IMG/VR virus record: IMGVR_UViG_3300023053_000001
Coordinates: 64,001 to 128,000 of that record
DNA length: 64,000 bases
Reading direction: 5' to 3' (one strand)
From: a virus
Lineage: Duplodnaviria; Caudoviricetes
The notes below the pieces were generated by a model, which had not been told where the DNA came from, did not search any database, and saw only the letters and a program-made list of their open reading frames with translations. The translations under genes and the position numbers were made by a program. Numbering within the stretch: position 1 is the first letter of the stretch; each line of letters starts with the position of its first letter. This document shows positions 14,899 to 46,918 of this stretch, piece by piece.

Positions 14899-15447
14899 TT
14901 ACGCCGGCAGTTCGTAGGTCAGGCCCGGCAGCACGTTGTTCACGATGACTGCGGCCAGATCGACGGTCGCCGACTTGATGGTCAGCAGCACGGTGCCGAT
15001 GTACTTCTCGGAGGTGGCCAGGATGGTCACCAGTTCTTCGCGCTCTTCGCCCGGTGCGCCGGTGAATTCTTCCAGATCGCGATCGGTGTAATCGCGACCG
15101 GCGGTCAGGTCGGTAGCGAACTTGACATTGAAGTCAGCAACCGCGTCAGAAAGCTTGAGCTTGCCCACCGAGTCGATCAGCAGGTCAGCCTTGGCGCCGA
15201 TGTCATCGCCGATGTGCAGGCGGGTGTAGCGCAGGGTCTGGCTACCGACGTAGGCAGTGCTACCTTCGGCGGCAGTCACGACGATTTCGGTGTTGGCCAG
15301 CGGGTTGGCCGGATCGGCGGCGCCGGAGTACACGGTGGGTGCTGCGTGGGTGTAGTCGGTCTGCTTCAGATTGGCAGCAGTATCCGGATTCACTGCCACG
15401 ACCATGTCATGCAGCAGCGTCTTGAAAGGAAGGGTCAGATTGCTCAT
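14899..15447 (-). CDS. virion structural protein of the dispersed paralog family (YTRL-type domain), C-terminal VLPGLTY motif
   Basis: GAGG RBS; NTEIVVTA / LRYTRLHI / KYIGTV pattern shared with 19484, 20625, 46442 and 46930. Confidence 0.7.
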   Translation of the reverse strand: MSNLTLPFKTLLHDMVVAVNPDTAANLKQTDYTHAAPTVYSGAADPANPLANTEIVVTAAEGSTAYVGSQTLRYTRLHIGDDIGAKADLLIDSVGKLKLSDAVADFNVKFATDLTAGRDYTDRDLEEFTGAPGEEREELVTILATSEKYIGTVLLTIKSATVDLAAVIVNNVLPGLTYELPA

Positions 15448-22338: not shown

Positions 22339-22773
22339 ATGTTCAAGCGCAAGATTCGCATCAGCGAGCAGATTTTTGACTCCATTGCTGATGCTGCCCG
22401 GTTCCTCAACGTATGTCCCTTGTCGCTGCGTAACTGGATCAAGTCCTCCAATCCGAAGTGGGCGCACATCCGTTACGAAGACCAAGAAAAAGTCAGCGTA
22501 GTGACCCGCACCAAAAACGTGCGGGTTTGCTATCGCGGCAAGCTGTATGATTCGTTGTCTATCGCCGCTCGCGCCAACCAACTCACCGCGCCGGCCATTG
22601 CCCACGCCATCAACAGCGAACACCATCCGGACTGTTACTACCTCAAGTCCAATGGTGAGCGTATCAAGCACGTCGAAAAGCCGAAGTACCGTATCTCCGA
22701 GCAGACCCGGCAGCGTGCCGTGAAAGCTCAGCAAAGGCGCCAGTTCTTCCAAGAGCTGAACGCCATCCCCTAA
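22339..22773 (+). CDS. protein with two NUMOD1/IENR1-like helix-turn-helix repeats and no nuclease domain
   Basis: IFDSIADAARFLNV and LYDSLSIAARANQL repeats. Confidence 0.6.
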   Translation: MFKRKIRISEQIFDSIADAARFLNVCPLSLRNWIKSSNPKWAHIRYEDQEKVSVVTRTKNVRVCYRGKLYDSLSIAARANQLTAPAIAHAINSEHHPDCYYLKSNGERIKHVEKPKYRISEQTRQRAVKAQQRRQFFQELNAIP

Positions 22774-22797
22774 CCTCCTCTATCCAAAGTGAAGACC

Positions 22798-23508
22798 ATG
22801 TCCAAGCATGACCATCTGCCTGTCAACGTTTCCTCCGTCATCGAATACCCGCAGCAGTGGGCCGATGAAACCGGCCCCTTCGGCGGCGCATTCCAATGGG
22901 CGCTGGACCATCTGGCCCCCAATGCGGAAGTCCAAGGCTTCCGTCAGGCGATCAACAGCTACGGTCGCCTGGAGCTGTTCAAGTTCCGTCTGATCCGCGG
23001 TCACGACGATGACGTGCGCGGTAAGATGGAAGCCGAAGGCGGCACCAACTTCAGCATGAAGAACGGCAACCTCGGCCTGGTTCAGCGCAACGAGGAGTGG
23101 ACCCGCCGCTATGTGTTGGTCGAAGCCGACGGCAAGCTGAAGTGGAAGCTGGAATGGGAACGTGTCATGTACCACCAGCCGGTGGATGCGGACATGCCGA
23201 CCATGGCAGCGGCCCTGATCAGCAAGTGCTCGGAGATGGCCAACCTGATCTCCCGTCACCTCAAGCGCAGCTGGTGCCGTGAGGTGTTTGGTTGCAGCTT
23301 TGAGAAGCTGCGCGATCATCGCCTCTACCGTCACCTGCTGACCGGCCGTGTCACCGACACCCACCGCGCTCTGTACACCCACTTCGTGGAAGAGTACGGT
23401 CAGGTCATCAACCTGCACGTGCGTCGCGCTGAAGGGCGCGAAGCCAGCTTCACTGACGCCGATATGGATGCGCTGGTGGCTGCCACCAAGATCATCCTCA
23501 ACGCCTAA
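22798..23508 (+). CDS. hypothetical protein (~236 aa)
   Basis: Strong codon bias; start at 22789 or 22798. Confidence 0.75.
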   Translation: MSKHDHLPVNVSSVIEYPQQWADETGPFGGAFQWALDHLAPNAEVQGFRQAINSYGRLELFKFRLIRGHDDDVRGKMEAEGGTNFSMKNGNLGLVQRNEEWTRRYVLVEADGKLKWKLEWERVMYHQPVDADMPTMAAALISKCSEMANLISRHLKRSWCREVFGCSFEKLRDHRLYRHLLTGRVTDTHRALYTHFVEEYGQVINLHVRRAEGREASFTDADMDALVAATKIILNA

Positions 23509-28175: not shown

Positions 28176-28958
28176 TTACTCGCCGTCGCCCGCATCGGCA
28201 GCGGTGACTTCCACCAGCACTTCGGTGGTGATGGCACCGATGGTACCGGTGACCACCACGCCAGCGTTGGCGACCAGGCCCTTGATGCTCACGCCGCCGC
28301 TCGGCAGGCCGGTCACTTCGACATCGGCGCTGTCAGCAGTCCAGACGATGCCGTCCAGCTTGGCATCGGCCGGGACCGGGGCAGCATTGACGGTGGTGGT
28401 TTCACCCACGGCCACCGAGACGCTGTCCGGGGTGGCGGTGATGGCGGTCAGTACGGCATCTTCCGGTTCCGGTTCCGGAGCGGTGGCGGTGCCGGTCAGC
28501 ACCACTGCCAGCGTGCCGTTCCAGAACAGGCCCTTCGGGTTGGTCTGGATGGCCAGCGAACGCGGGTAGTCGCCGGTGGTCGGCAGGGCCACGTTCAGCA
28601 GGTCGTCGGCGACCAGGATGGGGAAGCCGGCCGCGGCGTTGATCTTGGCGACCAGGTCATGCGAGGAGGTTTCGCCTTCATGCGCGACCGTCAGCGAACC
28701 GAGCAGTTCGTGGGAGGCGATGTCCTTGGACTTGACGTACACCGGGTAGCTGGTATCGGTGGCCTTGACCAGCACCTTCAGCTCACGGTCCGGGTCGTCC
28801 GGGTACTGGCCGGTCGGGATGGGAGCTTCCCAGGCGATTTCGAGATCTTCCGGCTTGAAGTTGCGTGCGGTGTTGCCCAGGTTGATCAGGGCAGTGACGA
28901 TGGCCTTGCTGGTCCGGTTCAGATCGAAGTCATCCGGGACGGTCTTCTGCGTCGACAT
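28176..28958 (-). CDS. virion protein with C-terminal Ig-like (Big_2-type) domain
   Basis: GGAG RBS; LTAITATPDSVSVAVGET....VPADA....VWT Ig signature; paralog-family-like N-domain. Confidence 0.7.
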   Translation of the reverse strand: MSTQKTVPDDFDLNRTSKAIVTALINLGNTARNFKPEDLEIAWEAPIPTGQYPDDPDRELKVLVKATDTSYPVYVKSKDIASHELLGSLTVAHEGETSSHDLVAKINAAAGFPILVADDLLNVALPTTGDYPRSLAIQTNPKGLFWNGTLAVVLTGTATAPEPEPEDAVLTAITATPDSVSVAVGETTTVNAAPVPADAKLDGIVWTADSADVEVTGLPSGGVSIKGLVANAGVVVTGTIGAITTEVLVEVTAADAGDGE

Positions 28959-33282: not shown

Positions 33283-33502
33283 TTAGGTATAATGATTTGG
33301 TAGATGTGATTCTACCCTTTCAGTTTTGGCGGCATGGTGGTCTCACCTGAAACCAGGACGTTCCTAGTTATATGGTTTGTGGGTAAAGTCGACTCAGCGT
33401 ATTTGGGTTCGACCTACTGCTGTGTAGAAATACTATAGCGGTCAGCGTCAATCTGGATCGCTGCCCACGGATCTTCAACACCCTTCGAAGGAAATATTTC
33501 CC

Positions 33503-35731
33503 ATGTGGAACCATCAGAACAAGCAGCGCAGCGCGCACACTGCTTTCGCGTCCAATGTCAAGTCCCTGACCGGCCAGGCCGGCTCCGCCCTGGTCAACGC
33601 CGATGACACCGCCGGCCTGCTCTCGTTCGAGTCGATGTCCGGCGAACGCCAGGAAAGCGTCAAGCAGACCCTGAGCGACGTCCAGTCCAAGATGAAGGGC
33701 TTCCTCTCCGGCATGGTCGGCGACGCCGGCCTCGGTTTCGAAGGCTTCGGCGGCAAGACCCCGGCCGAGCAGGACGCCCGTCTGGACATCGCTGCCCAGG
33801 CAGCCGCCGTGGTCGTGATGGCCGCCGGTGACGTCACCGGTTACGCCCGCAAGGCCTACACCGTCGAGCAGCACGAGAAGGGCGTCAACCGCCTGATCGG
33901 CTTCGACAGCGCCGGCACCGACCACCGCCTGGAGACCGCCTTCGAGGCGTTCGACAGCAAGGAACTGACCAACCACCTGCCGTACTCGGCCACCTTCGCA
34001 GCCTTCGGCTCGCGCCAGGACGAGTTCTGCGAAACCTTCTTCAACACCGCGGTCGTGACCCCGGACCAGGCCGGCCTGGACATCGAGATCACCATCCCGA
34101 AGGTGTTCACCAACAGCACCCACCCGACCAACGGCAACCCGACCAACTTCGACAAGAAGAACCTGATCGACGCCGTGGTGGACGCCTCCATCCTGAAGGA
34201 TCACGCCACCCGCCTGATCCCGCATGCCAACCCGGACAACAGCAACGCCGACAAGTTCGTGCCGGTGGCCAACCACGCCAGCGTGTTCGAGCGTCAGCAG
34301 GGCTTCGACATCCCGACCCGTCCGCTGAAGGCCGGCGTCGACATCGGCCTGATCGGCGTTGCCGCGTACGCCCCGATCCTGGCTGGCGGCGTGCTGTCCA
34401 ACACCGACGCCGTCGATGCTTCGATCGAGCTGGAATCGGTGTGGCTGGCCTTCGACGCCACCACCCCGGCGATCGGCTTCGACACCAGCTACATGCCGCG
34501 CAACCGCTTCACCAAGACCGTGGAAGGCAACTTCAAGGCCATGCAGCTGACCTTCAGCTCGCGTGACCTGGTCATCGATGGCACGAAGAAGAACTCGGCC
34601 AACCTGGTGCCGGCGCAGTTCCAGGCGATCATCGACAACGAGTGGAAGGTCTACCTGAAGGTCCAGGTGCACGGCGAGTTCAACGTCGAGTTCGGCTCGG
34701 TGAACCTGACCGGCTTCCCGGTCAAGGTCGACCTGATCCAGACCAAGGCTGGCGTGAGCATCGGCCTGACCGACGGCGTGGGCAAGACCCTGGTCGACGC
34801 CCTGGAAGAGCTGTACGTGGCCGGCTACACCCTGAAGGCCAACCGTACCAACTCGAACCTGCGTACCCGCGGCCACGTGGTCGACGTCACCGTCGAGCGC
34901 GAGCGTCACACCCTGCCCCTGGGTTCGCCGATCACCTTCCCGAGCCCGGTGCATGAAACCAATCGCGATGGCGACATCAAGATTGCGATCAACGCATCGC
35001 GCATCCGCAACAGCAACCTGGGCGTCACCGTCCTGCTGACCTACGCGGATACCCTGGAGAAGGTCGTCAAGGGTCCGAAGCGCGACGACGGCGTCGTGCC
35101 GGCCATCGCCGGTGCCGCCCGCTGGGTGGTGCAGCCGTGGTTCGAGCGTCGCAAGCTCGACGTCTCGGCCAGCATGACCTCCGAGAAGTCGATCGAACGT
35201 GCCGGCGACATCGCGCTGACCCTGGTCAACGCCATCCGCGACATGGCCTACCGCGCCTACCGCGACTCGCGCTACCAGGCTGCCCTGGACGCCGCGTCGC
35301 AGGGTTCGGGTGAGAAGCCGACCCTGATCATCGGTACCGACAGCATCATCGAGCGTCACCTGATGCTGGCCGGCGACGACCGTACCTTCGGTACCGTCTT
35401 CGAGAAGTTCAAGATCGTCTCCTCGCAGGACAGCCGCGTCTACGGCAAGATCTTCATCACCTTCAGCCGCGGTTCCAGCGATCCGTCCGACGTCCTGTCG
35501 TTCGGTACCCACGCCTGGATGCCGGAACTGACCGGTGCTCTGCCGATCAACCGTGCTGGCGCGACCTACCACGAAGCGATGGTGCAGCCGCGCAACCTGC
35601 ACGTGCCGAAGCTGCCGATCCTGGGCATCATCGAAGTCGCCGGTCTGTCGAAGGCGCTGGTCGAGAAGACCCCGGTCCTCATGGTCGGCCCGTCCGACAT
35701 CGTCAACCCGTGGCTGCCGGTCGTTCCGTGA
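33503..35731 (+). CDS. major capsid protein (phiKZ gp120-like)
   Basis: 742 aa, extreme C-ending codon bias, A[FS]EAFD maturation-type site, RQDEFCE.FF..VV.PD, NLRTRG; synteny. Confidence 0.85.
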   Translation: MWNHQNKQRSAHTAFASNVKSLTGQAGSALVNADDTAGLLSFESMSGERQESVKQTLSDVQSKMKGFLSGMVGDAGLGFEGFGGKTPAEQDARLDIAAQAAAVVVMAAGDVTGYARKAYTVEQHEKGVNRLIGFDSAGTDHRLETAFEAFDSKELTNHLPYSATFAAFGSRQDEFCETFFNTAVVTPDQAGLDIEITIPKVFTNSTHPTNGNPTNFDKKNLIDAVVDASILKDHATRLIPHANPDNSNADKFVPVANHASVFERQQGFDIPTRPLKAGVDIGLIGVAAYAPILAGGVLSNTDAVDASIELESVWLAFDATTPAIGFDTSYMPRNRFTKTVEGNFKAMQLTFSSRDLVIDGTKKNSANLVPAQFQAIIDNEWKVYLKVQVHGEFNVEFGSVNLTGFPVKVDLIQTKAGVSIGLTDGVGKTLVDALEELYVAGYTLKANRTNSNLRTRGHVVDVTVERERHTLPLGSPITFPSPVHETNRDGDIKIAINASRIRNSNLGVTVLLTYADTLEKVVKGPKRDDGVVPAIAGAARWVVQPWFERRKLDVSASMTSEKSIERAGDIALTLVNAIRDMAYRAYRDSRYQAALDAASQGSGEKPTLIIGTDSIIERHLMLAGDDRTFGTVFEKFKIVSSQDSRVYGKIFITFSRGSSDPSDVLSFGTHAWMPELTGALPINRAGATYHEAMVQPRNLHVPKLPILGIIEVAGLSKALVEKTPVLMVGPSDIVNPWLPVVP

Positions 35732-35794
35732 AAACGCGAACGTCTCGCCGAGGTGGTTGCTAACACCGTACTGCCGGGGCTTACGTACCCGTAA
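35732..35794 (+). other. in-frame 20-codon extension behind the capsid UGA (candidate readthrough segment)
   Basis: TGA-AAA CGC GAA CGT CTC GCC GAG GTG GTT GCT AAC ACC GTA CTG CCG GGG CTT ACG TAC CCG TAA = KRERLAEVVANTVLPGLTYP. Confidence 0.6.
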
Positions 35795-35831
35795 GGAAAG
35801 TGAAAGCACATCTCACGGATGACGTGTAACA

Positions 35832-35873
35832 AGCATAGGCCCACACCCCTCCGGGGGTGTGGGCTTTATGCCG
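35832..35873 (+). terminator. hairpin flanked by CATA and TTTATGCCG
   Basis: GGCCCACACCCC-TCC-GGGGGTGTGGGCT. Confidence 0.8.
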
Positions 35874-35944
35874 TCTATTTGAAAGGTATTTCAGACATAC
35901 ATCATCCAAGAGTAACTCCTGAAAGTGCAACAACGGTACTCACC

Positions 35945-37129
35945 ATGAATCCATCTTCTCGCGCTACTGAATTTGTCCCAAGCGCGATTGAGCTTGGTGC
36001 CAGATCAGAGAACCTGAGAATCACTCCCCAGTCGATCACCTCGATCCAGATCTTCAATGGTCTGGGTCGGCCGGTGTGTGCGGCATTCCGGACCGGAATC
36101 CGCCAGCAGATCCCCAACCTGATCACGGCCTCTCGCCAGGCCGTTCTCATCCGGTTGTCCTATTACACTCACCACGGAGTAAATGTTGACACAGCACTCC
36201 TATTGAATGACGATGGAAGCGAGGGGTCGAAAAGCAGTCAGCTGCTGCATGCTGCACAAGCCAGAAAGCTCACCGAGTACCAATCCGGTGTAGGCCATAT
36301 GGACGTTGCGCATGTGGACTACTTTGTCTCATTGGCTGATTTCCAGGCCAGCGGTTCATCGATCTACATTGATGAGCTGGACATTGTCCTCAGTCTGAAT
36401 AGCATCGACCAAACGCCTTTCCATCCTCACTCCCTCCACGGAGTGAGAGATCGACTTATGCCGTCTCCCATGGATGAGCTGGGGCAGGCTTTCAACTACA
36501 GGGTGGAAATCCACGATTGCGATGGTGTGTTCGGCGATCGGTTTGTGAATGTAGGTGGGGAAGTGTTCCCGATTAAGCGTCGGACTGACCAGCGTGGTCG
36601 GGCAGGCGTTTACGTGATCAGTTCCTACCCGTCCAACACCATCACCGGAGTCACCAGCCAGCGTGCTCGACATTACACCTTCATCGAGGCCGACGCTAAG
36701 CTCCATCTGTATCACAGTGCCCTAGAGGCGCAAACCCATGGCAATCCCAGTGACGTGTACAAGCGGGAACTGGAAACCATTGCCCATCAGAACAAGCTGG
36801 ATGAGAATCGAATGAAGGCAGAGGCCCGGCAACAGGCAGCTGACCTCGAGGATCGTAAGCGCATATGGGAACGGGAGAGGGAAGAGGCAAAGCAGGACCA
36901 GCTCCGTGAGGAGCGTAGACTGCGTGAACGCGCAGCAGAGCTGGATGCTCTAGCCAACAATTACCGCTTGCAGGAACATCAGCTCAAGGTTGATAAACTG
37001 TATCGCACGGAAATGTACGAGCAACGCTCTGACCAACGTAAGAACTGGTCTGAGTCGCTCAAGCTTTTCCCGGTGTTGCTAACTCTGGTGGCGGCCGGAA
37101 TTGCAGCATACAAGAAATTCTCTGACTAA
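35945..37129 (+). CDS. conserved-position protein with long coiled coil and C-terminal TM anchor
   Basis: E/R/Q-rich heptads, then LFPVLLTLVAAGIAAYKK; lies between the capsid and RNAP genes. Confidence 0.7.
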   Translation: MNPSSRATEFVPSAIELGARSENLRITPQSITSIQIFNGLGRPVCAAFRTGIRQQIPNLITASRQAVLIRLSYYTHHGVNVDTALLLNDDGSEGSKSSQLLHAAQARKLTEYQSGVGHMDVAHVDYFVSLADFQASGSSIYIDELDIVLSLNSIDQTPFHPHSLHGVRDRLMPSPMDELGQAFNYRVEIHDCDGVFGDRFVNVGGEVFPIKRRTDQRGRAGVYVISSYPSNTITGVTSQRARHYTFIEADAKLHLYHSALEAQTHGNPSDVYKRELETIAHQNKLDENRMKAEARQQAADLEDRKRIWEREREEAKQDQLREERRLRERAAELDALANNYRLQEHQLKVDKLYRTEMYEQRSDQRKNWSESLKLFPVLLTLVAAGIAAYKKFSD

Positions 37130-37148
37130 AGTCGGCGAGGACTTATTT

Positions 37149-38783
37149 GTGGACAAACGTCTTTTTGATCTGGTTCATCAGCGCACGCCCAAGTTCAACG
37201 ACCGAATCGCTGAGGGCTATGCAGTCAAGGCCATGCGTTTCGTCGAAGACAGCGTGAATCGCTACTTCGAAACAGCTGCCGCGGAGTTTCCGCCGGAGCT
37301 GACGTATGAGGGGTACGATCGTCGTACCCCGTTCGAAGAGTACAACGAAGTTACCAAGCGCATCACCAAGCAGCAGAGCAACACCACGCGCAGTACGTTC
37401 GAACTGGCCCCCAGCTGGCTGTACATGGTGGTCTACAAGTTCAAGTTCAACGGCGAAGACATGGAGCTGCGTCCGCTGTACCTGCCGTTCGTCGGTCAGG
37501 CCGGCACCATCGTCTTGCGTGGTAGTACGTTCAGCATCTGCCCGGTTGCAGCCGACAACGGTTTCAGCGTCGGACCGGACAACCTGTACATCCCGCTGAA
37601 CAAGCTCAAGCTCACCTTCAAGCGCATTCCGCATCACTTCCTCAAGGACGGTGAACGCGAGACGGCGCAGGTGGTGTGGGCCCGTGTGCATCAGGCGTCC
37701 CCGCCTAAGGGATTCCGTATGATGGTCCAGGGTCACACCACCATCCCGCATTACATCTTCGCCGAGTACGGTGTGCGTGAAGCATTCCGTCGCTATCTCG
37801 GCGCTGAGGTGGATGTGGGAGATCCCTTGGCCATCAACGAGAACACCCATCCTGCCAGTGAGTGGATCATCTGCTCCACCCAGCACTCTGCGATGCTGCG
37901 CCCGCGCGGTGTCAAGGACAAGGCGTACGTGGCCAGCAACATCCGTCTGGCCATCCGTAAGGAGCATTACAACCTCACGGCACGGGAGATGATCGGTGGG
38001 TTCTTCTACGTGGTGGATCACTTCCCGGATCGGGTACTGCCCGATTACGTGGACCAGCCGCGCCTGTGGGCCAACCTGATCGGGTCGTTCCTGTTCGGTA
38101 CGAGCAAGAGCGAAGGCAAGATCGCTGAAGAGATGATGCATCACATGGCCTCGGTGCGAGGCTATACCGATGCCGAGAGCCGCCTGTCCTTCCAGACCGC
38201 CGGCATCGAAGCTGAAACCATCCACGACTTCTTCTTCCATGTGGTCGAGTCGTTCAACCAGCGCATCACCCAGTCGCAAAGCGATGTGTCCAGCCTGTAT
38301 GGAAAGCGCCTGATGGTGCTGTACTACGTGCTCAAGGACATTCGTGAAGCGATCAACAGCTTCACCCTGAAGGTCGTGTCGCCTCGCAAGAAGCCGCTGA
38401 CCAAGAAGGACATGGAGAAGATGCTGCGTGACTACATCAAGCCCCTGTTGATCATGGGCCTGAACAAGGAACACGTGGAGGTCAACTCCGTGGCGGTGCC
38501 TGGGGACAACATGATCCCCAAGATCACCAGCCAGATGGCGCTGCAGACCGACACTCGCATGGGTCGCGGTCGTGGCGGTGGGTCGGTCAACGATGCCACC
38601 AAGCACTTGCACGTTTCGGTTGCCGAAGTCGGCAGCTACTCGACCATGAACAAGTCCGATGCCACCGGACGTCGCAAGATCAATCCCTTCGCTAAGACGG
38701 ATGAGAACGACACCATCATCCGCAACCCTGCACTCGTGGAAATGCTCGACGAAGTCCAAGGCAAAATCCAGCGTCGTCAGTAA
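37149..38783 (+). CDS. non-virion RNA polymerase beta-type subunit (phiKZ gp123-like, inferred)
   Basis: GAGGA RBS + GTG; L.LPFVG..G.IVLRGS.F.I.PV, HVSVAEVGSY, GRRKINPF resemble RNAP beta motifs; synteny. Confidence 0.7.
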   Translation: MDKRLFDLVHQRTPKFNDRIAEGYAVKAMRFVEDSVNRYFETAAAEFPPELTYEGYDRRTPFEEYNEVTKRITKQQSNTTRSTFELAPSWLYMVVYKFKFNGEDMELRPLYLPFVGQAGTIVLRGSTFSICPVAADNGFSVGPDNLYIPLNKLKLTFKRIPHHFLKDGERETAQVVWARVHQASPPKGFRMMVQGHTTIPHYIFAEYGVREAFRRYLGAEVDVGDPLAINENTHPASEWIICSTQHSAMLRPRGVKDKAYVASNIRLAIRKEHYNLTAREMIGGFFYVVDHFPDRVLPDYVDQPRLWANLIGSFLFGTSKSEGKIAEEMMHHMASVRGYTDAESRLSFQTAGIEAETIHDFFFHVVESFNQRITQSQSDVSSLYGKRLMVLYYVLKDIREAINSFTLKVVSPRKKPLTKKDMEKMLRDYIKPLLIMGLNKEHVEVNSVAVPGDNMIPKITSQMALQTDTRMGRGRGGGSVNDATKHLHVSVAEVGSYSTMNKSDATGRRKINPFAKTDENDTIIRNPALVEMLDEVQGKIQRRQ

Positions 38784-46441: not shown

Positions 46442-46918
46442 ATGAGTCAGTCCCTGCGATTGCTGGGCTTGCCGATCAAGACGGCCCACCAAAGCATGGT
46501 CGCTGAAGCGTTGACGGATAGTGACAATGTGAATCTGCTCCAGATCGGCGACCCGTTTACCCGTGGAGACGGGCGGGTCGGCCTTCTGGTGTCTGTTGCC
46601 GATGAAGCTTACGACGACCCGGACATGAAGTGGTATGGGACCGTCGACTTCTCCGTGCGCAAAATGCCACTGGAGGAGTTTTTTGCCGGCATCACGCTGA
46701 AGATCAAACTGCCGGCCACCCCGGCCGGCGGTCTCAACACCAACACCGATGACGTGGTGGATAAGTTGAGTGAGATCTTCGGTATTCGCTTTGACCCCGT
46801 CGACTATTTCAGCGATGCCATCGTTTCTGCCGGCTCTGCCGATTACATGCTCCGTACCACGGTCGTCAGTCCGCGCTGGTCGGGGCAGGTCATGGTTCAG
46901 ATTTATCCTGACGTGTAA
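46442..46918 (+). CDS. virion protein of the dispersed paralog family
   Basis: WYGTVDFSVRKMPL, IFGIRF, SPRWSGQ. Confidence 0.68.
   Translation: MSQSLRLLGLPIKTAHQSMVAEALTDSDNVNLLQIGDPFTRGDGRVGLLVSVADEAYDDPDMKWYGTVDFSVRKMPLEEFFAGITLKIKLPATPAGGLNTNTDDVVDKLSEIFGIRFDPVDYFSDAIVSAGSADYMLRTTVVSPRWSGQVMVQIYPDV

Follow-up and report, generated by a model that had tools for sequence, protein, structure and literature searches.

A candidate readthrough extension of DUF7941 type behind the UGA stop codon of a jumbo-phage major capsid gene

The window analysed here is a 64,000-nucleotide stretch (bases 64001-128000) of the IMG/VR record IMGVR_UViG_3300023053_000001, a 268,458-bp viral sequence with terminal repeats that originates from soil metagenomes. 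The window carries the gene of a phiKZ-type major capsid protein, which terminates in a UGA codon followed, in the same frame, by 20 sense codons and a TAA. The peptide specified by these codons resembles the C-terminal element of the short DUF7941 virion proteins of the same phage, and homologous peptides are found behind UGA-terminated capsid genes of distantly related phages. The sequence comparisons reported below suggest that leaky readthrough of the UGA probably yields a minor capsid isoform tagged with this element. Coordinates refer to the window unless stated otherwise.

A DUF7941-type peptide behind the capsid stop codon

The capsid open reading frame (ORF) is assigned over its full length to the Pfam family PF25620 (PhiKZ_MCP). 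The PDB entries matched by the protein are jumbo-phage major capsid proteins (E values from 2e-92 to 2e-52) and include phiKZ gp120 (8y6v, E 2e-64). The protein is as long as its relatives and ends in ...NPWLPVVP, directly followed by the TGA, and the next gene downstream begins at 35945. The preliminary description of the window had reported an open 20-codon frame between the capsid TGA and a TAA, which is borne out by the sequence. It had also raised the possibility of an assembly error at the TGA. Such an error is excluded by five independent assemblies that share the TGA. The JGI contig L008 shows 1 mismatch over 4133 bases and is identical in the TGA and the extension, and contigs from four sequencing runs, one of them a DNA run, are free of differences over positions 33300-37300.

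UGA is the leakiest of the bacterial stop codons and is decoded by tRNA-Trp; termination is modulated by the base after the stop and is weakened by a C-terminal proline. The capsid gene ends in a leaky stop (CCG-TGA-A), leakiness being taken from established E. coli data. TGA closes 50 of the 142 large ORFs of the genome, and TGA-A, found in 5/142, is the rarest TGA context. The extension has a GC content at third codon positions (GC3) of 0.65, compared with 0.91 for the capsid gene. Four codons present in the extension (aaa, gta, ggg and ctt) are used zero times in the 742-codon capsid gene, in agreement with the rare codons noticed earlier. The unbiased codon usage of the extension fits rare translation.

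The core of the extension, LAEVVANTVLPGLTY, and the stretch LAAVIVNNVLPGLTY of a protein encoded on the opposite strand (14899-15447) share 11 of 15 residues, as had been claimed. The similarity is at the protein level, since the codons differ for six of the identical residues, and the nucleotide identity is 32/45. A third copy of the motif (...LSMVMANTVLSGLTYE...) lies outside the window, at genome positions 22600-23130, and also matches the extension at 11/15 residues. A six-frame scan of the whole genome returned these two other copies at 11/15 and zero matches at 8-10, and the best match obtained with 300 shuffled queries in the same scan was 7-9 of 15. By these sequence comparisons, the extension peptide is no chance match.

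Both 11/15 copies are the C-terminal ends of proteins of about 180 residues that feature DUF7941 and belong to PHROG 1037, annotated as 'virion structural protein'. When the genome was searched with the Pfam DUF7941 model, six matches were found in paralogous genes, in addition to the post-stop stretch, which aligns to positions 154-176. The score of the latter against DUF7941 (PF25613) is 10.3 bits (E 0.04), below the cut-off of 27, and the stretch is not a member of the family by this test. Judged on sequence, the extension is a fragment homologous to one DUF7941 element and not a family member.

A DUF7941 profile search of 1.84 billion proteins identified 537 family members. A word-based homologue search with the 182-residue protein of the window found one relative only. 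The tail element occurs family-wide in DUF7941 and reads [DI]-L-[AS]-x-V-[IV]-...-[LM]-[DNPS]-G-[LF]-x-[YL]-..-P. Read by eye, the end of the member P0123, RDLAEVIANNVLDGLTYEPPV, matches the extension at 12/15 residues. A 24-position tail profile was built from 86 DUF7941 tails. The extension scores 25.4 bits against it, the other two frames of the same stretch score below 0 bits, and no control-frame peptide exceeds 1.9 bits. DUF7941 is a large family of recombining paralogues, with 3-20 matches per genome.

The DUF7941 family profile matches chain 0 of PDB entry 9xqd, which is PHIKZ127, and phiKZ gp127 is located in the outer 'star lobe' of the baseplate (PMC13250141). Because DUF7941 is related to phiKZ gp127, the proteins sharing the motif are of the baseplate type and are not known capsid decorations. 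In the AlphaFold model of the 182-residue protein, the element is predicted with high confidence to form a short helix that leads into an extended chain. The features of the window are listed in Table 1. In one of the two paralogues that lack the tail element (28179-28958), the DUF7941 match is followed by beta-rich residues that look Ig-like by eye and have no Pfam match.

Table 1 Features of the window (strand and supporting evidence are indicated).
Feature	Position	Strand	Evidence
Major capsid protein gene, phiKZ type (PF25620), 742 aa	33503..35731 (including the TGA stop)	+	Pfam and PDB matches
Stop context CCG-TGA-A (Pro, UGA, then A)	35726..35732	+	Sequence; identical context in L002
20-codon in-frame extension KRERLAEVVANTVLPGLTYP	35732..35791	+	Sequence; tail profile; Pfam DUF7941 positions 154-176
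Core motif LAEVVANTVLPGLTY	35744..35788	+	11/15 to each of two DUF7941 paralogues of the same genome
TAA closing the extension	35792..35794	+	Sequence
Small perfect hairpin cttacg-tacc-cgtaag over the codons for LTYP and the TAA	35780..35795	+	6-bp stem
Terminator-like GC-rich hairpin, then TTTATGCCG	35834..35871 (about)	+	Fold; conserved in L002, L003, L005 and L006
Short DUF7941 protein, 182 aa, ending in ...LAAVIVNNVLPGLTYELPA	14899..15447	-	phrog_1037; PF25613 E 3.6e-19; AF2 pLDDT 94.9
DUF7941 paralogue without the tail element; match to profile position 151, about 100 further residues	28179..28958	-	
DUF7941 paralogue, 158 aa, ending immediately ahead of the tail element (profile position 153)	46442..46918	+	

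Post-stop peptides of related capsid genes

Capsid relatives retrieved from the protein database have between 80% and 57% identity in the C-terminal half, and the DNA of eight of them was compared. The stop codon is in the same position in all eight close relatives, after NP[WY]LP and 2-4 further residues, and the extension is shared by L002 alone. The L002 capsid protein has 71% overall identity to that of the window, rising to 89% in the last 100 residues; its gene keeps CCG-TGA-A and continues with the post-UGA peptide KRRLAEVYPERDLDGLRLEQVQSGP in a 25-codon open frame. Codon alignment of the two extensions, with one codon gap, reveals that 10 of 19 residues are identical and that 9 of the 10 corresponding codons differ at the third base only. 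Mismatches are distributed as 9/7/16 over the three codon positions (Fisher p = 0.0055), a third-position bias of the kind that protein-guided pairwise alignments inflate. The L002 peptide scores 6.3 bits against the tail profile. Between the extension and the terminator, the two sequences look poorly alignable.

Closer relatives were sought in several ways. None was found by related locus in viral contigs or metagenome contigs. A degenerate DNA pattern covering the TGA and the codons at the start of the extension matched at 1 viral and more than 118 metagenome sites, none of which adjoins a capsid gene, and a C-terminal capsid fragment used as query for partial genes retrieved a 54% fragment only.

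The survey was widened to a set of 35 related capsid genes, window included, which is small, phylogenetically clumped and chosen by ourselves. Sixteen of these genes end in TGA and 19 in TAA. In 13 of the 16 TGA-ending genes, the stop is followed by 15-28 in-frame sense codons featuring either a DUF7941-type element or the motif RxLExG. In each of the 13 extension-bearing genes, the TGA is followed by A, C or G, and in the three TGA-ending genes that have no extension it is followed by T. No motif was found behind the stop in any of the 19 TAA-ending genes. An in-frame extension that persists without stops at capsid identities as low as 30%, is recognisable at the protein level despite scrambled third positions, and occurs only behind a TGA followed by a base other than T, is unexpected for an untranslated stretch.

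The DUF7941-type element is found behind the TGA in the window, L002, FLC9, FLC1-1B, RP12, pEa_SNUABM_54, Goslar and 2050HW. The hosts of these phages include Burkholderia (FLC9), Ralstonia (FLC1-1B and RP12), Erwinia (pEa_SNUABM_54) and Serratia (2050HW). The post-UGA peptides read RTRLVEVTDLDGFKVYPG in FLC9, …SLDDILDDNVADGFIAP… in Goslar and TLAEAFEETLPGFDPA in 2050HW. In FLC9, 2050HW, Goslar and pEa54, homologous peptides are found behind the TGA at only 30-35% capsid identity. A tblastn search with the 28-residue Goslar extension returned Goslar itself only. RxLExG repeats are found behind the TGA in phiKZ, PS119XW, Phabio, Psa21 and Noxifer, and also end the DUF7941-family proteins P0219 and P0253. 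In these five phages (phiKZ, L138:1051-1128; PS119XW, L148; Phabio, L151; Psa21, L157; Noxifer, L147), the repeats read RxLE[DN]G and lie within 26-28 codons.

Conservation of the downstream frame at the protein level is indicated by shuffle tests, by the third-position bias and by the silence of the control frames. Scores above 3 bits against the tail profile were obtained for 6/35 frame-0 post-stop peptides, all of them behind TGA, and for 8/35 in-frame capsid tails, compared with 0/70 control-frame peptides. In residue-shuffle tests, the similarity of the window extension to those of FLC9 (35% capsid identity; p ~0.0005), 2050HW (about 30% identity over the C-terminal 206 capsid residues; p ~0.003-0.005) and L002 (71% capsid identity; p ~0.002-0.005) exceeded that of shuffled peptides. 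The extensions of the window, L002 and FLC9 have a common R-x-R-L or R-R-L prefix that is foreign to the DUF7941 consensus. This prefix favours inheritance of the extension as such over repeated capture. The unusual variant DNVADGF of the Goslar extension recurs in one short DUF7941 paralogue of that phage, in parallel with ANTVL-GLTY in the window. The length of the open frame alone does not separate TGA-ending from TAA-ending genes (Mann-Whitney p = 0.058), and openness of the post-stop frame is by itself uninformative, as some TAA-ending genes are also open.

A conserved post-stop frame in relatives had been proposed as a test of readthrough. It is found in L002, where TGA-A is followed by a homologous open frame, and in the distant phages, and is not found behind TAA. 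It had also been argued that relatives carrying the motif in frame, with no stop, would speak against readthrough. Such relatives do exist: in eight capsid genes, among the TAA-ending ones, the element forms the regular in-frame C-terminus (LucasX, ...VYLDGLKYPTP; RTH11; Proteus phage 10; Simmy50; others). Yet they do not refute it, because such in-frame tails align to the NPWLPVVP of the window protein, and the extension is an additional copy located past the stop.

Capsid proteins of the sister clade (P0011-P0041, LucasX L134 and RTH11 L135) end in frame in N-x-[YW]-[LM]-[DP]-G-[LI]-[TK]-Y-P, for instance ...NPYMDGLTYP, a tail which resembles that of DUF7941. In the window subclade, the in-frame tail is shortened and variable (NPWLPVVP, NPWLPAP, NPWLPGLGA). 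The capsid proteins of the window and L002 diverge unevenly, amino acid identity being 47-56% over the first 150 codons and 88-91% over the last 220. Synonymous changes between the two genes are few throughout (17% of identical residues), which suggests either mosaic exchange or a strong bias in codon usage. Upstream of the capsid gene, a leader of about 220 nucleotides (33283-33502) is well conserved in the corresponding regions of L002, L003 and L005. It holds an invariant GGTATAATGAT box and a GTCGAC.CAGC block, and is probably composed of a late promoter and a long leader.

Proposed readthrough and its alternatives

According to the reading that we favour, the capsid mRNA ends in the weak terminator Pro-UGA-A, at which most ribosomes would stop and release the 742-residue protein. 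A few ribosomes would decode the UGA by a near-cognate tRNA (Trp in known bacterial cases), adding W plus KRERLAEVVANTVLPGLTYP and giving rise to a minor isoform of 763 residues. The added tag would be a copy of the C-terminal element of the short DUF7941 virion proteins of the phage. By analogy with the arms of phiKZ gp120, the tag may be displayed outward at the capsomer centres, on a few subunits per capsid. The sequences themselves display the layout, its homology and its in-frame conservation behind TGA in distant relatives; that the extension is translated, how often readthrough occurs, which residue is inserted and where the tag lies are what we infer here. The preliminary description had proposed programmed readthrough and had pointed to small hairpins 3' of the stop. 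The conserved in-frame extension behind a weak UGA (L002; FLC9, 2050HW, Goslar and pEa54) agrees with readthrough, and a role of the hairpins is unsupported. A docking function of the tag for decoration or accessory virion proteins, likewise suggested there, is conjectural.

A more specific role for the tag can be envisaged, to which we give little credence. The two DUF7941 paralogues that lack the tail element (28179-28958 and 46442-46915) might be completed in trans by the element borne by the capsid. A baseplate-type or adhesin-like protein would then be pinned at the centre of a few capsomers, as a Hoc-like decoration the copy number of which would be set by the leakiness of the stop codon, and the same would hold across Chimalliviridae, including phiKZ and Goslar.

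Several observations weigh against readthrough. The other seven relatives of the subclade end in TAA or TGA-T and have no related peptide behind the stop; judged on these sequences, the extension is dispensable or easily lost, since most close relatives do without it. The L002 extension is of another length, and its motif core has drifted to DLDGLRL. Some TAA-ending genes of GC-rich genomes have long open frames behind the stop. The composition of the 35-gene set and the inflation of the third-position bias, both mentioned above, have to be counted here as well. In the 182-residue DUF7941 protein, the modelled tail element probably packs on its own domain; a folded domain is the known context of the element, and a function of the free 20-mer would be hypothetical. 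A suppressor tRNA was sought in the genome and none was found, the only tRNA encoded being tRNA-Leu(CAA), and the post-stop stretch folds no better than shuffled sequences (z = -1.14). Finally, soil libraries labelled as 'RNA' (X4, X20 and X24) give phage contigs of 138-234 kb; contigs of this size indicate that the libraries contain DNA, or whole-genome transcripts, and they are therefore silent on expression and on the 3' end of the mRNA.

The post-stop stretch may alternatively be an untranslated relic that happens to lie in frame, having been left behind by the 3' end of a DUF7941 gene or generated by recombination between similar terminator cassettes. We hold this to be unlikely, though it deserves consideration, as the fragment covers only the last ~23 positions of the 175-position DUF7941 domain and the extension is both missing from 7/8 close relatives and drifted in L002. 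Moreover, terminator cassettes ended by TTTATGCCG recur genome-wide and could drive recombination, and the size and recombining nature of the DUF7941 family point in the same direction. However, a relic is expected to decay evenly over codon positions, yet the mismatches to L002 are mainly third-position. In at least five lineages, it would also have had to arrive in frame, and each time behind a TGA with a base other than T next to it rather than behind a TAA, and the R-x-R-L prefix of the window, L002 and FLC9, which is foreign to DUF7941, indicates common descent over deep divergence. If the stretch is translated, UGA leakage may still be incidental, the product being merely kept short and harmless and the tag having no role of its own. 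Why a specific conserved element of virion proteins has been copied in several lineages is not explained in these terms, nor is the absence of an early second stop, or the retention of the rarest and weakest stop context, rather than TAA, by the gene with the highest expression. Incidental leakage consequently appears improbable to us, even if it would accommodate the variable length of the extensions (15-28 codons), their fast sequence drift and the several close relatives that have none.

It is very improbable that the stretch is kept as a structured RNA element of the 3' untranslated region, its coding appearance being secondary. A small hairpin is found between stop and terminator in most relatives, and that at 35780-35795 is a perfect palindrome, but the fold is not significant compared with shuffles, no Rfam family matches the post-stop stretch, and the hairpin sequences are not homologous between relatives. 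Furthermore, structure cannot yield a protein-level similarity that uses different codons. For the same reasons (z value and Rfam), a role of the two small hairpins noted in the preliminary description is unsupported; the one at 35780-35795 does have a perfect 6-bp stem, and the other (35752-35767) has 4 bp only. Other modes of decoding, namely an antisense small ORF, TGA reassignment, selenocysteine insertion or an assembly error, are hardly credible. In the window, no stop interrupts the antisense frame 35566-35844, which has its wobble bases at the same positions, but this frame was rejected because in L002 it is interrupted by a stop beside the conserved block. Reassignment of TGA and recoding by a suppressor tRNA are contradicted by the use of TGA as a regular stop, by the tRNA content of the genome and by a capsid length equal to that of relatives. 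The TGA of the five assemblies speaks against a sequencing artefact. For a selenocysteine insertion sequence (SECIS), no Rfam match and no significant or conserved hairpin by the UGA were found, no dedicated bacterial SECIS model having been run.

Two further candidates were rejected. A tandem duplication of the capsid's own tail would not account for the extension, which by eye matches the capsid end at about 4-5/20 residues, compared with 11-12/15 for DUF7941. A programmed frameshift of the T7 10B type is not indicated either, as the extension lies in frame 0 directly behind the stop and needs no slippery site.

The statement that the terminator comes only after the extension is confirmed by the strong terminator-like hairpin listed in Table 1, which a simple terminator scan did not call (short T-run). 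Terminator hairpins followed by the TTTATGCCG box occur in 16 genome copies, for instance at 35865-35873 in the window, and the same layout is found behind the capsid genes of L002, L003, L005 and L006. In L005 and L006, a conserved hairpin (gggctc-tgcaaa-gagccc) is located about 30-50 nucleotides past the capsid stop, and unrelated small hairpins are similarly placed in other relatives.

Relation to known systems and significance

The A1 protein of Q-beta is produced by readthrough of the coat-gene UGA. As in Q-beta (Qubevirus), the capsid gene of the window ends in UGA; in Q-beta, readthrough by a minority of ribosomes is known to give a C-terminally extended isoform that is built into the capsid. 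The two systems differ in other respects. Q-beta is a single-stranded RNA phage with a T=3 coat and a folded extension of about 200 residues, whereas the window phage is a double-stranded DNA (dsDNA) jumbo phage with an HK97-fold capsid and a putative 20-residue tag copied from proteins of the baseplate type. Moreover, the A1 product is established, whereas the readthrough form of the window phage is deduced from sequence. Tailed dsDNA phages are known to use frameshifting to make minor capsid isoforms, and readthrough is the textbook case of Q-beta. The 10A/10B proteins of T7 and the capsid and tail variants of the Listeria phages PSA and A118 feature sub-stoichiometric C-terminal extensions obtained by recoding, as proposed here, but these arise by programmed -1 or +1 frameshift, whereas the window extension is in frame 0 behind the stop. 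The proposed system would thus combine the mechanism of Q-beta with a T7-like role, and the comparison of capsid genes makes readthrough the probable route. In the full-text literature, we found no report of stop-codon readthrough in the capsid gene of a jumbo phage or any other tailed phage.

At hexamer centres, the C-terminal arms of phiKZ gp120 assemble into a six-helix bundle, whereas at pentons their partner is gp244, an external vertex protein (PMC11297242). The window capsid protein is of the same family, in which the gp120 C-terminus is an outward-facing, partner-binding region (PMC11297242), although its tail sequence is unrelated to the gp120 arm. The phiKZ structure models include the 747 annotated residues of gp120 only, with no mention of a readthrough form (PMC11297242), and only annotated gp120 is modelled in both phiKZ structure papers. 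The likeness to DUF7941/gp127 (PMC13250141; PDB 9xqd) is confined to profile positions 154-176 and to the C-termini of two short paralogues. Unlike DUF7941 proteins, the extension is a 20-residue fragment that is attached to a capsid gene and has no DUF7941 fold.

The frame behind the TGA is worth checking when capsid genes of this family are annotated. If the extension is translated, nucleus-forming jumbo phages, including phiKZ and Goslar, carry an unannotated capsid isoform, which would have been missed by virion proteomics and by cryo-electron microscopy models built on the annotated ORF. The shared peptide links the capsid to the large DUF7941 family of baseplate paralogues, and offers a testable handle on virion assembly or decoration.

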